A stretch of DNA of 64,000 bases from Patescibacteria group bacterium (lineage in GTDB: Bacteria > Patescibacteriota > Patescibacteriia > Patescibacteriales > JBAZCA01), in NCBI GenBank assembly GCA_041671125.1, contig JBAZCA010000005.1:85864-149863 (forward strand), given 5' to 3'. Every line of letters starts with the position of its first letter. The first letter of the stretch is position 1. Made by a program: the position numbers and the translations under genes. Positions 30,425-38,484 of the stretch are shown piece by piece. A model generated the notes under the pieces. It was not told the origin of the DNA. It made no database searches and saw only the letters and a program-made list of their open reading frames with translations.

Positions 30425-33400
30425 ATGCGTAAACTAAAAAAATTTTTTGCGCCAATATTTATTTTCGCCCTTATTTTTCCTTTCGGCGCTTTCGGACAGG
30501 AGGGAAGACTTGAGGCTTCGGTGAGCGCTGAATCGTTGGGCGCTCACGCTACGGCCAGCAAAGCAGAACCGGCAGATAGCGGTCAAAATCAGTCAGGTCC
30601 TCTAAGATCAAAACAAAACCCGTTTTTTAACGATGATTTTAGTATAGCAGTTGAAGCTGATAAAACTGAAGCTCAGGATGGAATTGATACATCCGGCATA
30701 ACGACTGAATCGGAGAGCCAGGCTCCGGAGAGCGGCGAGGAAGAATCCGCGCCGATGACGCTTACCGAAGATCCGCCAGTTTACGAAGGAGAAAAAAAAT
30801 TATTGGAAGAAAAAAAACCGACTGACCCGGACTCTTCGTCCGGTTCTTTTATTTTTAATTTTCCCATTGAAGTTCCGCCGGGACGGAACGGCTTAGAACC
30901 CGATCTTAAACTTACCTATGACAGCGGCAATTCTGATAATAGCGGTGTTTTTGGTTATGGCTGGTCAGCGAATATTCCTTATATAGAAAGGATAAACCGG
31001 GAAGGCGCGGAAAGTTTATATTCTGACGATTATTTTTATTCTTCTCTTGACGGTGAACTAAAAGCATCCGAAGGCGAAGGAGAAGGTTTATTGGGACTAG
31101 GGGAAAAAGAAACTTTAATTGAGGAAAACGGCGAAAAAAAAGTTGAGTACGCCCCGTTATCACCTCTTGATTTAACAGCCGAGGAATGGGTGAAACATGG
31201 GTTAGCCGAGAAAAAAGATGACGGCAGGATTATGCTAGTTACCCCCGAGGAAGAGGAAGGCAGAAGGACATTAAAAAGCAAGGTATATTTGATGGGCAGG
31301 GAAGCTAATGGAAAAAATATTTATAGTACCAAAATTTACGGCAGGGATATCCATTTTTTAAACAACAAGACAGGCAAAAATGAGGATATTGTATTGGATT
31401 TATCATATGGCGAGGAAAGCTGGCAAACTGAAAAAACCCCTTATAAATTAACAGTTTCAGAGTTTATTGAAAATAGCATTTTCGAGTTTACAAATAAAAA
31501 TCAGAAACTAAATTTTTCGTTAGCCGATGAGTTAGGAAATTTAAGTAAAGGCTTAAAGGGAGAAAAAAAAGAAAAGGCGGACAATAGTGTTATTTTCAAG
31601 GATATTTTAGGACAGGGGGTAGATATTTCGATTGAACCGGAGAATACCGGGGTTGTTAAGGATGTTATTATTAAAGATTTTGATGCGTTAAAAAATTTCA
31701 TTACCGACGAAGAGGGCAATATCGGATTTACATTTAAACTAACTTCAAATAAAAAAATAGATATTAGAGCCGGAGACAAACATTTAAGCCAGTTAGGCAA
31801 ACTTACCTCAGGGGAAACCGTGGAGGTAATAGATGATGAAGGAACCGCTTCCTATATTTTGGCTCCAAGAGCAATAGATTCTAAAGAAGGATTATTAAAC
31901 CTGGAAATAGAATACGAATTAAAAAAAGACGGAATTTATTTAACTAAAAAAATTCCATTAGACTGGCTGGAAAACGCGAACTATCCGGTCAGAGCCGATA
32001 CGGTAGTGAGCCTATATGGCAGTAGCGGTGATGGATGGGTGATGAATTCGGGAACTGGGGCAGGATTTAGTAATTTAAGGGACGCGCAAACCGGTACGGC
32101 TAGCTATTATACTTACTCAACGGCATGGGTTAACGTGCAAAATGAAGTAAATGGATACCAAGAAATTAGAAGAGGCTTTTTTTCCTTTAATACTTCTTCA
32201 CTCGGTTACGCGGCCTTAATATCGTCAGCCGCCTTAGTCATAACATCCGTGAGTTCTAGCAACTCGTTGGGAAATTACGGCATGACTGTGGCTGCAGGAA
32301 CTCAAAGCAGTACCAGCACCCTGTCAAATGGCGATTTCGGTTCAGTCGGTTCTACGGCATTGAGCGATTCATTTTATGAGTGGAGCGTTTTTAATCTAAA
32401 TACCGACGGGAGAAACCATATTAATCCTGTCGGCTGGACTAAATTTTCCGTTAGAGAAAATTATTATGATTTATTAAATCATAATCCCGGCGCGGTTTAT
32501 GGCCAAAATGTCTTAGGTTATAAAACATCAGAAGAAGCAGGCTCGGATTATGATCCGTATCTTTATATAGAATATACGGTCAATACTGGTCCCAGATCAC
32601 CAGAAGACTTATTAACTGAAGCCCAAACCAACCCGACCAGCGTTTCCGACAGTGAGCCTGAATTCAGCGCTATATACGACGATCCCGATCTCGGAGATTA
32701 CGCCGCTTATTATCAGATTGAGATTTCCACCTCTTCGGTTGATTGGTCCAATCCTGTCTGGGATTCTAATAAAACCGCTTTCGCGACTTCAACGCCCGAA
32801 GGATCTAGATGTAACGATATAAGTTACGGCGGAACAGAGCTTGACCTTAACGGAACTACATATTATTGGCGGATTAAGTTTTGGGATGATGAGGACGCGG
32901 AAGGTCTTTGGAGCGATGGCACCGATTATTTTTCCATGTTCGGCTCGGCTCCGAACGGGCTAAGAGTTGAAGGAAATGAAAATCCTTTAAACATTGACGA
33001 TGATAAACCGGAGTTTTCCGCCGTTTTTAATGATCCCGACGACGGCGATTTGGCCGTGAATTATCAAATTCAGGTTTCTCAAATGAACAATAACTGGGAA
33101 AATCCTGTCTGGGACTCGGAAAAAATCGCGCTAGCCAGCTCAACCCCGGAAAGCGGGAGGTGTCCCGATATTTCTTATGGCGGATCATCCTTGCCGATGG
33201 ATGGCTCGACTTATTATTGGCGGATTAAATTTTGGGATGATTCGGATGTTGCGAGCGTTTGGAGCGACACTAATTATTTTATAACCGCGACAACGACGCT
33301 GTTCGGCGCCAAGATTGAAAATGGCAATTTTATTAAATACGAAAAATTAAGCGGCGGAAGCTGGCGGGCGTATGATAAAAAAGGGACCAGTTATAAATTC

Positions 33401-38400: not shown

Positions 38401-38484
38401 TTGAATAATTCCAATAACTCAAATAATAACAATAATTTTAATAACACTAATAATAAAAAACATGAGGTCATTAAGAAGAAATAA
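35461..38484 (+). CDS. TcC-like RHS-repeat protein with an RHS core and a variable C-terminal toxin domain (CT1)
   Basis: The GTG start overlaps the upstream stop (GTGA). Many YD repeats are present (FTYDGLGQRL, FTYDDSGNIT, YNYDRQGNQT, YYYDKTGNIT). The RHS core reads YIHTDHLGGTSAVSDESGAVVQNLDYFPFGGERL...YVGARYYNSNVGKWISQDP...LNSYNYVTNNP. A Gly-rich hydrophobic tail follows (GVGRGIAALGGGTLSISAIISTGGVGAALGG) and ends in an Asn-rich run. Confidence 0.8.
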   Translation: MKESKYYYDTLSYGNVSKGNMTKEEIWKSGTSYADVEKTYNSYGLVTEEKDPRDKITSYVYDSYNLFVATSTNPIGQSADYYYDYSSGKIKKTIDPNGREFQTVYDALDRVIEEKQPDITTPSTLITKAVYEYSDSGLSRMVKTRNYLDSAVNFDKYSYLDGFNRVVQERKESEDANTYSVKDYVYNKLGLLDKETLPYFSSGASSTPIVASSTLHILYSYDPLQRITTVVNSVATTTNAYDDWKVSVTDGEGKVKDLYKDAYNNLIQVDEHNATSTYSTYYQYNLLNNLTKITDALENERDFTYDGLGQRLSAEDLHASGDGTYGIWEFTYDDSGNITSQEDPKNQTVNYTYDDINRTLTEDYAGGAGTDITYGYDWCADGKGRLCSATSTAEILNLSYNALGLVSSQTKTIDSLNFTTSYNYDRQGNQTLATYPNNTEIKHEFNSAGLLEKVLKKESGEENYSDVLGDIDYNPLAQKTYEDYSNGAAGYYSYNENEIYRLENKQTAIATSSIQDLSYYYDKTGNITKIEDQSDTNAAKTLDFIYDDLHRLTVASSTLAVNNQNFRQTYSCNAIGNITNKSDVGNYTYTDDGYNNPHAASQINGTASTYDNNGNLLNDGTWTHAWDYDNRIASSTDSNITLNYAYDHEGQRVKLSDGTTTTYYPDQYYSVSGATSTLQIFANGEHIATIEGNGTATSTYYIHTDHLGGTSAVSDESGAVVQNLDYFPFGGERLNEKAGSYDNEQKFAGYVRDEDSGLDYVGARYYNSNVGKWISQDPITVRLNRNEVYSKLYENQYSKDPNFTTFLGAFRPQKGYRNSIKEEDLRDTSFYYFLSDPQQLNSYNYVTNNPVLYIDENGEVKWGQLCKGVGRGIAALGGGTLSISAIISTGGVGAALGGTYVVAESGIQLAYGVNEVASAIKDEKFEAGRTLIGTIAENYSDKKSADKTEKIETAAGVVDTVSNPNPFKVLQSGLGIYENFLNNSNNSNNNNNFNNTNNKKHEVIKKK
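37237..38009 (+). repeat. Copy 1 of a ~773-nt direct repeat (RHS core-encoding region)
   Basis: It aligns by eye with 38999-39772 with scattered substitutions and includes a 75-nt identical run (acctattacatccatacc...gttgtacaaaat). Confidence 0.9.

Follow-up and report, generated by a model that had tools for sequence, protein, structure and literature searches.

The systems closest to the locus described here are the B and C subunits of toxin complexes (Tc), the secreted WapA-type Rhs proteins and the rhs loci of Enterobacteria. A survey of 2528 TcC proteins identified a conserved PxxxxDxxG motif, with two aspartates and the glycine as critical residues, a variable proline in the 'DPxGL' motif, a polar or charged residue immediately before the cut (P-1) in 29% of cases, and hypervariable regions of which 97.9% are 201-400 amino acids (aa) long; single-gene B-C fusions are also known, e.g. 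in Burkholderia pseudomallei (PMC7861908). WapA/Rhs proteins of ~350 kDa are Sec-dependent, leave the cell in an unfolded state and acquire their fold after export (PMC12704120), and an earlier paper noted a secreted Rhs toxin of 2487 aa, together with an immunity gene, in a Saccharibacteria genome (PMC6031116). Here we analyse a stretch of 64,000 nucleotides (nt) from a Patescibacteria group bacterium (GenBank assembly GCA_041671125.1, contig JBAZCA010000005.1, positions 85,864 to 149,863; hereafter the window), in which two overlapping open reading frames (ORFs), ORF1 and ORF2, had been proposed from the sequence to be a TcB/TcC-like gene pair. We conclude that they are probably the two halves of one Sec-exported Rhs toxin gene (~2686 aa, 297 kDa) that has been broken by a real 1-nt deletion.

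Relatives are continuous across the ORF1/ORF2 junction

The original prediction described the sizes and coordinates of both ORFs, and their GTGA overlap, exactly (Table 1): the TGA of ORF1 (35462-35464) is overlapped by the GTG of ORF2 (35461-35463), which is the earliest possible start in a frame that opens only at 35434. A query spanning this junction retrieved many Patescibacteria relatives, of 44-60% identity, in which both sides are covered. Homologues align through the junction in 95 of 123 cases, with only the window's own proteins ending or starting there, and the junction is likewise spanned by 44 of the 147 representatives from an exhaustive search; 14 representatives from that search unite the SpvB motif with the RHS core in a single protein of 2641-3278 aa. 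GTDB species representatives have single ORFs of 2823, 2647, 2543 and 2189 aa, each with one N-terminal signal peptide, and a relative of 2672 aa (P0340) is colinear with the restored 2686-aa protein over residues 116-2596, with an inserted decoration module (described below) placed alike. NCBI already annotates these proteins generically.

Addition of one base to the GGN codon at 35453-35455 gives the restored sequence NQSGSKVKESKYYYD / GLPKIETLANQSGSKVKESKYYYD, which is in gap-free register with the relatives; the restored segment NQSG-SKVKESKYYYD has the same length as its counterparts in P0014 (NQSASKVKESKYYYD / GLPSQETVTNQSASKVKESKYYYD) and P0027 (NQSGNKVRETKYYYD / ...ENQSGNKVRETKYYYD). 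These continuous relatives speak against the claim that the frame change reflects a genuine two-gene arrangement rather than a broken rhs gene. The split is explained by the loss of one base from a stretch that essentially all relatives encode without a break; a division of the TcB/TcC kind is not supported and, on the basis of these sequence comparisons, ORF1 and ORF2 are not a conserved TcB/TcC gene pair. Two relatives considered as independent cases of the same split, both beginning or ending within ~5 residues of the junction, were rejected, as P0034 is encoded on a contig where several ORFs are in fragments and the tail of P0068 is out of frame.

The frame change is real

Homology places the correct reading in the ORF1 frame up to ...ETLANQSG and in the ORF2 frame from SKVKESKYYYD, with a one-base overlap between the two; the window allele at the site reads TCCGGAGTAAGG, as against TCCGGNAGTAAGG for the intact, one-base-longer allele, and contains no homopolymer run. 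The window belongs to a 198-kb metagenomic contig (k141_201856), whose proteins are attributed by NCBI to a 'Patescibacteria group bacterium'. Exactly the same ORF1, with the overlapping ORF2 start, was found in ENA ERZ27249449 and in the Logan assemblies of SRR18595301 and SRR6484324, the contigs from these two sequencing runs being 100% identical to the window DNA over 7164 and 5862 nt. ORF1 is further recorded in two NCBI metagenome-assembled genomes (MAGs), at JGI and in a second contig of 150,906 nt, and ORF2 as recorded at JGI (P0004) is the same protein apart from V/M at residue 1. A single-nucleotide assembly error, which the original prediction had allowed for, is contradicted because the same DNA occurs in contigs from independent runs. 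A scan of metagenome contigs for both alleles (pattern CAAACCAATCCGGN{0,1}AGTAAGGTGAAAGAG) returned 0 matches, the known allele included, and is thus uninformative. An alternative genetic code in which TGA encodes glycine was rejected, as read-through would continue in the ORF1 frame and be unlike the homologues, which match the ORF2 frame, and the other genes in the window are long ORFs under table 11.

Many public relatives also end in out-of-frame tails or are divided into several ORFs, L009 and L020 among them. The out-of-frame or broken proteins are P0017, P0021, P0023, P0028-P0030, P0033, P0035, P0036, P0048, P0051, P0053, P0056, P0068 and P0095, and the broken locus L020 agrees with the intact L015 both in its N-terminus and in the genes on either side. 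Such members may reflect either assembly errors or frequent real frameshifts in long repetitive genes.

Anatomy of the two ORFs and position of the break

Profile searches recovered the TcB-type domains that had been proposed for ORF1. From its N-terminus this protein comprises a signal peptide (aa 1-24), a linker rich in S, E and P, a first part of the SpvB domain (aa 138-213), an inserted β-sandwich module (aa 214-960), the second part of SpvB, six FG-GAP blades (aa 1162-1421), TcdB_midN (aa 1387-1536) and the first hairpins of the shell. The Pfam matches are to SpvB (PF03534, E 2.4e-18), FG-GAP_3 (PF13517, E 3e-22, in five stretches), TcdB_toxin_midN (PF12256, E 8.5e-14) and two Ig_Rha78A_N domains; the motif D[VF][ND]GDG occurs six times between residues 1162 and 1413, corresponding to the six blades that had been predicted, and alignment to YenB (E 3e-11; YenB residues 38-109, 165-219 and 340-799) also supports the SpvB/TcB head. 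The N-terminus, MRKLKKFFAPIFIFALIFPFGAFG, consists of a basic n-region and, after it, a hydrophobic stretch (mean Kyte-Doolittle value 2.27) and, judged on sequence features only, is signal-peptide-like and of the Sec type, as had been proposed. The features predicted for ORF2 are likewise borne out, by matches to RHS repeats (PF05593, E 1.5e-23) and to the RHS-associated core (TIGR03696, E 1.2e-13): the rest of the YD-repeat shell is followed by the core (aa ~699-859) and by a hydrophobic, Gly/Ala-rich C-terminal tail of 148 aa (CT1, aa 860-1007). Inspection of sequence features found no hydrophobic N-terminus or signal peptide on ORF2.

The alignment to YenB extends up to ORF1 residue 1525 (YenB 799), which places the end of ORF1 at approximately residue 950 of the 1491 in YenB, the TcB/TcC boundary lying at ~1490. 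The best PDB sequence matches of ORF2 are to Rhs cores of the type VI secretion system (T6SS). The shell was modelled with AlphaFold2 from an alignment of 44 sequences, as a repaired single chain of 1116 aa rather than as two chains. The restored model (mean predicted local distance difference test score (pLDDT) 80, predicted TM-score 0.77) best matches the TcdB2-TccC3 structures 6suq and 4o9x in the PDB (TMq 0.74-0.75), with T6SS Rhs proteins at 0.55 or less, and the junction (model residues 252-255) falls in a turn between strands 242-248 and 254-262, at a pLDDT of 93-94. By this model, the restored gene product is a single-chain, BC-type cocoon, and the predicted site of the break is within a β-hairpin, far upstream of the TcB/TcC boundary.

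Two-gene relatives are divided elsewhere

Some relatives do consist of two genes. Among them are P0006 (1423 aa), which was seen on six contigs drawn from at least three samples, as well as P0007, P0009 and P0013, and the loci L003:426-8076, L011:1215-8719, L002:8001-13959 and L010:5158-9488. In these the first (shell) gene, of ~1400-1445 aa, ends ~450-510 residues beyond the position of the window junction, at '...LWKE(S)D' or '...YRLxxI...', and the second starts 1-35 nt later and encodes a further signal peptide, followed by a decoration module, the remainder of the shell, the RHS core and a toxin. The TGATATG junction is identical in L003 and L002, though their split sites are ~50 residues apart. 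In the shell model these split points map to surface loops, where other members, such as P0003 and P0031, take in-frame insertions. Of 120 short relatives with an RHS core, seven (P0124, P0152, P0153, P0159, P0176, P0178 and P0211) also begin with a signal peptide, and a 'mini-Rhs' of signal peptide, RHS core and toxin lies downstream of the main gene at L015 (L015:10244-11566).

These arrangements raise the suggestion, which we consider distinctly doubtful, that the Patescibacteria Rhs cocoon toxin is modular at the protein level, i.e. that units of plug and toxin are exported separately and either assemble extracellularly with a shell or act on their own. Examples would be the 455-aa orphan cassette of the window (see below), P0159, P0178, P0211 and the L015 mini-Rhs, and a precedent exists in Yersinia entomophaga, where exchangeable C subunits are supplied from separate loci (PMC11067744). 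If this suggestion were correct, orphan cassettes would be exported toxin subunits and not silent spares for recombination, and the breakage of the main gene would matter less, the orphan cassette being the active toxin.

Weighing a broken gene against its alternatives

The alternative that survives best, although we regard it as unlikely, is that the split is functional, with ORF1 and an ORF2 re-initiated at its GTG forming a two-chain cocoon like that of TcB/TcC. The GTGA overlap with GGAG 4 nt upstream, the intactness of both ORFs, the proximity of the cocoon model to the two-chain TcdB2-TccC3 and the tolerance of two-gene forms among relatives can all be cited in its favour. However, every two-gene relative examined splits at a different place and has a signal peptide on its second gene, no non-identical sequence shows the split seen here, and the break consists of one missing base in a hairpin that the relatives counted above encode continuously, at the equivalent of YenB ~950 rather than at the B/C boundary. 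The two products would, moreover, occupy different compartments. Sec exports unfolded chains and, because only ORF1 has a signal peptide, a re-initiated ORF2 would stay in the cytoplasm and a truncated ORF1 would be exported.

Programmed -1 frameshifting or transcriptional slippage, by which some full-length protein would be made, is highly improbable. The ORF2 frame is indeed -1 with respect to that of ORF1, and the Shine-Dalgarno-like GGAG stands just before the stop, but between 35434 and 35464 there is neither an X XXY YYZ heptamer in the 0 frame nor a homopolymer run; the downstream RNA forms no stable structure (z = +0.48, with 134 of 200 shuffled sequences folding at least as well), Rfam gives nothing at the junction, and relatives encode the segment in one frame. 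A sequencing or assembly artefact, with a true genome one base longer and one intact gene, is barely credible: the frequency of out-of-frame tails in metagenomic relatives does indicate that errors are common in public records, but the same sequence is present in two NCBI MAGs, at JGI, in Logan assemblies of two different SRA runs and in an ENA contig with a MEGAHIT-style (k141) name, at a site that is not a homopolymer.

We therefore favour a single gene broken by deletion, although several observations weigh against this reading. There are no further stops in 8 kb and both halves are otherwise intact, so that the break must be either very recent or tolerated; the GTGA overlap and the upstream GGAG are compatible with translational coupling; and Tc toxins build their cocoon from two chains. 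All copies are 100% identical and therefore provide no evolutionary test of upkeep of the split versus decay. Finally, the signal peptide, immunity roles and membrane-toxin activity are deduced from features of the sequence.

For the single-gene protein in its intact form, running from signal peptide through TcB-type head, YD-repeat cocoon and RHS core plug to the 148-aa toxin, we envisage the following sequence of events. By analogy with WapA-type Rhs proteins it would leave the cell unfolded via Sec and, once outside, would fold to a cocoon that encloses the toxin after autocleavage. The decoration module would probably bind surfaces and the toxin probably damage the membrane of a neighbouring cell, the producer being shielded by the putative four-transmembrane-segment protein encoded from 38462. 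In this strain the secreted product would stop after ~250 residues of the shell, and the most to be expected for ORF2 is re-initiation at the GTG that overlaps the stop, giving a product that lacks an export signal. On sequence grounds the main toxin is most likely inactive, i.e. a recent pseudogene, with its candidate immunity genes and the orphan cassette intact.

RHS core, toxin and decoration module

The RHS core of ORF2 contains Asp777 (in ISQDP) and the sequence P-VLYI-D855-EN-G858-E, such that both aspartates and the glycine of PxxxxDxxG are present, and that of the orphan cassette (P-ITSI-D-IS-G-E) also fits; the core thus carries a predicted aspartyl autoprotease motif. An insertion of about 80 aa between ISQDP and the end of the core, and DENGE or DISGE in place of DPxGL, had both been thought unusual. 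A long stretch does exist, but from ISQDP to NSYNYV it measures 62 aa, the aspartates at the catalytic positions being 78 residues apart versus 23 in TccC3; a loop of similar or greater length is present in P0125, P0126, P0128 and P0131 (14-16 aa in other relatives), and the loop of ORF2 is of low confidence in the model. At the DPxGL position, where close relatives have DPxGE, DENGE and DISGE are indeed found, but both satisfy PxxxxDxxG. To judge from these alignments, the long core loop and the two motifs are variants typical of the clade and not unusual.

At 148 aa, CT1 falls below the 201-400 aa of TcC hypervariable regions, as does the toxin of the orphan cassette (CT2, 154 aa, Gly-rich), which differs from CT1 and is common to P0125 and P0126. 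Pfam and NCBIfam gave nothing above noise for CT1, CT2 or either candidate immunity protein. Gly-rich hydrophobic tails like CT1 occur in relatives (the second gene of L003, P0146, P0161 and the main gene of L015). Because CT1 is hydrophobic and Gly/Ala-rich and is paired with a protein of four predicted transmembrane segments, its composition suggests that toxins of this kind may act on the target membrane from outside, with no need of an injector.

The 747-aa decoration module within the SpvB domain is predicted by AlphaFold2 (pLDDT 87) to be a string of β-sandwich domains. A fold search of the PDB matched only generic fn3/Ig arrays and gave no function, and Pfam and NCBIfam contained nothing above noise for its first 530 aa; a DNRLRE-like assignment for part of the module was rejected on the same grounds. 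Profile searches of the Rhs protein found no cell-wall-binding, LysM or sortase-signal matches. A word-indexed search with the module returned one match, so that an exhaustive search was required, and this identified 2848 relatives at E ≤ 0.001. Its placement varies among P0245-P0391, either within SpvB, as here, or in shell loops at residues ~1500-2250, and it behaves like a movable insert. The modelled β-sandwich chain is compatible with an adhesin-like decoration, without constituting proof of one.

Organisation of the locus

Table 1. Features of the Rhs toxin locus (positions are those of the window)
Feature	Position	Strand	Size	Remarks
Left copy of 59-nt direct repeat	30308..30366	+	59 nt	Terminator hairpin, T-run, promoter-like TATGGTAAAAT; upstream of ORF1
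ORF1	30425..35464	+	1679 aa, 185 kDa	5' part of rhs gene
Decoration module in SpvB domain	31064..33304	+		Predicted all-β chain of Ig/fn3-like and sandwich domains, including both Ig_Rha78A_N
Frameshift site	35453..35457	+		TCC GG/AGT AAG; 1-nt deletion in an ancestral GGN codon
ORF2	35461..38484	+	1007 aa, 112 kDa	3' part of rhs gene
Candidate immunity protein 1	38462..38836	+	124 aa	Assigned by position only; 23-nt overlap with ORF2 end
Orphan rhs C-terminal cassette	38897..40264	+	455 aa	Own ATG
Candidate immunity protein 2	40254..40583	+	109 aa	Soluble; assigned by position only; overlaps end of orphan cassette
Third RHS core relic	43019..43063	+	45 nt	Encodes DESGAVVQNLDYFPF
Right copy of 59-nt direct repeat	43143..43201	+	59 nt	98% identical to left copy

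The features surrounding the toxin gene (Table 1) lie in a 12.8-kb block that is bracketed by the two copies of a 59-nt direct repeat, which contain the only two strong plus-strand terminators of the block. Two Logan contigs (L007 and L008) both start at 30337, within the left copy, and the repeat may mark the boundary of an insertion or duplication. Each toxin gene is overlapped at its 3' end by a small ORF without a family match, and these two ORFs are candidates for the cognate immunity proteins; the product of the first has four hydrophobic segments, which form two duplicated pairs (2+2).

The orphan cassette encodes, in order, a putative signal peptide (MKNLRLIITSLILASIFLPDLALA, with D following the cut), the last YD repeats, the RHS core, PITSIDISGE and CT2. 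Its residues ~30-295 are 80% identical to aa 582-850 of ORF2, and the DNA at 38999-39771 is 89% identical to that at 37237-38009 over 776 nt, the homology stopping at the cleavage motif, so that main gene and orphan diverge exactly after it. The core relic, just past the stop of a trypsin-like gene, is 91-93% identical to 37603-37647 and 39365-39409 and looks like the leftover of a third cassette. The layout of main toxin, candidate immunity gene, orphan cassette, second candidate immunity gene and core relic is that of a classical rhs locus.

The product of the trypsin-like gene (40877-43003) is a secreted S1 peptidase (708 aa) whose C-terminus holds two repeats of ~50 aa; the gene lies on the same strand, within the repeat-bounded block and with no strong plus-strand terminator separating it from the toxin genes. 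It was considered as a partner of the toxin and rejected, as nothing links its function to that of the toxin. To the right of the repeat is an ORF6N/Rha-like gene (43238-43330 and 43408-43755) that is seemingly interrupted by a stop and may be a second pseudogene.

The original prediction had also noted the absence of visible TcA or T6SS genes. No TcA or T6SS domains were found among the window ORFs scanned, which lie before ~48.7 kb, and, within the 64 kb analysed of the 198-kb contig, the only ORF of more than 2000 aa (124-8043) is not TcA-like. Likewise, no large ORF of non-Rhs, non-housekeeping type adjoins any of 15 related loci, and inspection of the genes on either side of the Rhs locus revealed neither a sortase nor a SecF-like partner. 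The product of 124-8043 is a protein of 2639 aa with an N-terminal type IV secretion system pilin domain (TrbC/VirB2-like) followed by fn3, Big_5 and TIG domains; a TrwB/VirD4-like coupling ATPase is encoded 38 kb away, at 45785-47851. The two may belong to a type IV secretion or pilus-like apparatus, in which the giant protein would be held at the surface through its pilin domain. Elsewhere in the window, a Fic/DOC protein and a RhuM-like protein (14108-15169 and 24792-25844), encoded amid ftsA, ftsZ, ybeY, nrdD, a release-factor gene and comEC, may be products of further conflict or mobile-element genes.

Implications

In one sense the locus is one more Rhs polymorphic toxin locus, most likely disabled by a frameshift, and the value of the analysis is mainly corrective and contextual: an overlapping stop and start, with plausible protein sizes, is insufficient to call a two-gene system. 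It also draws attention to a very large family, carried by Patescibacteria (the candidate phyla radiation, CPR), that combines a Sec signal, a TcB head and a BC-type cocoon with no TcA nearby, and raises the question of how the cocoon is opened and the toxin delivered without an injector. The two-gene relatives with two signal peptides, and the orphans with signal peptides, provide leads towards extracellular assembly or the stand-alone secretion of RHS-core toxins.

Comparison with known systems

Compared with the Tc BC proteins (TcdB2-TccC3 of Photorhabdus and YenB-YenC of Yersinia entomophaga), the protein described here has SpvB, FG-GAP and TcdB_midN domains in common, a cocoon model that superposes best on TcdB2-TccC3, and a core with the two aspartates and the PxxxxDxxG glycine. 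It differs in having no TcA gene in the window or beside the 15 related loci, a shorter shell (~1100 aa versus ~1480), a β-sandwich decoration within the SpvB domain, a break away from the TcB/TcC boundary and a toxin smaller than the usual TcC hypervariable region. It also carries a Sec signal peptide, whereas Tc B and C subunits are not known to have one. The toxin-immunity pairs and orphan cassette point, in addition, to inter-bacterial rather than anti-eukaryote use. Of the TcB/TcC-like arrangement originally envisaged, the head and the cocoon fold are retained, but the two-gene division of labour is not supported, given the 1-nt deletion and the continuous relatives; membership of the TcB/TcC pairs fails, as the split is not conserved and is wrongly positioned, no TcA is seen nearby and the toxin is too short.

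With WapA-type proteins (Bacillus subtilis WapA and Streptococcus suis WapA-CT1) the locus shares a Sec signal on a YD-repeat protein of ~300 kDa, and an RHS core followed by a polymorphic C-terminal toxin; the adjacent candidate immunity gene would be a further point in common. Patescibacteria, like the hosts of WapA, have a single-membrane envelope. WapA, however, has cell-wall-binding, LysM and DNRLRE parts at its N-terminus and lacks the SpvB, propeller and TcdB_midN head of the present protein, whose modelled cocoon resembles Tc BC more than it does other Rhs structures. The rhs loci of Enterobacteria are similar in their series of main gene, immunity gene (here a candidate) and an orphan that shares core DNA up to the cleavage motif before a new toxin and its immunity gene (again a candidate here), and in the presence of a further core relic. 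Unlike in those loci, the orphan starts from an ATG of its own and places a putative signal peptide directly before the last YD repeats, and there is no association with PAAR, VgrG or other T6SS components. The gene thus combines a cocoon of the Tc BC-fusion type with an export signal of the WapA type, in a locus of the rhs type.

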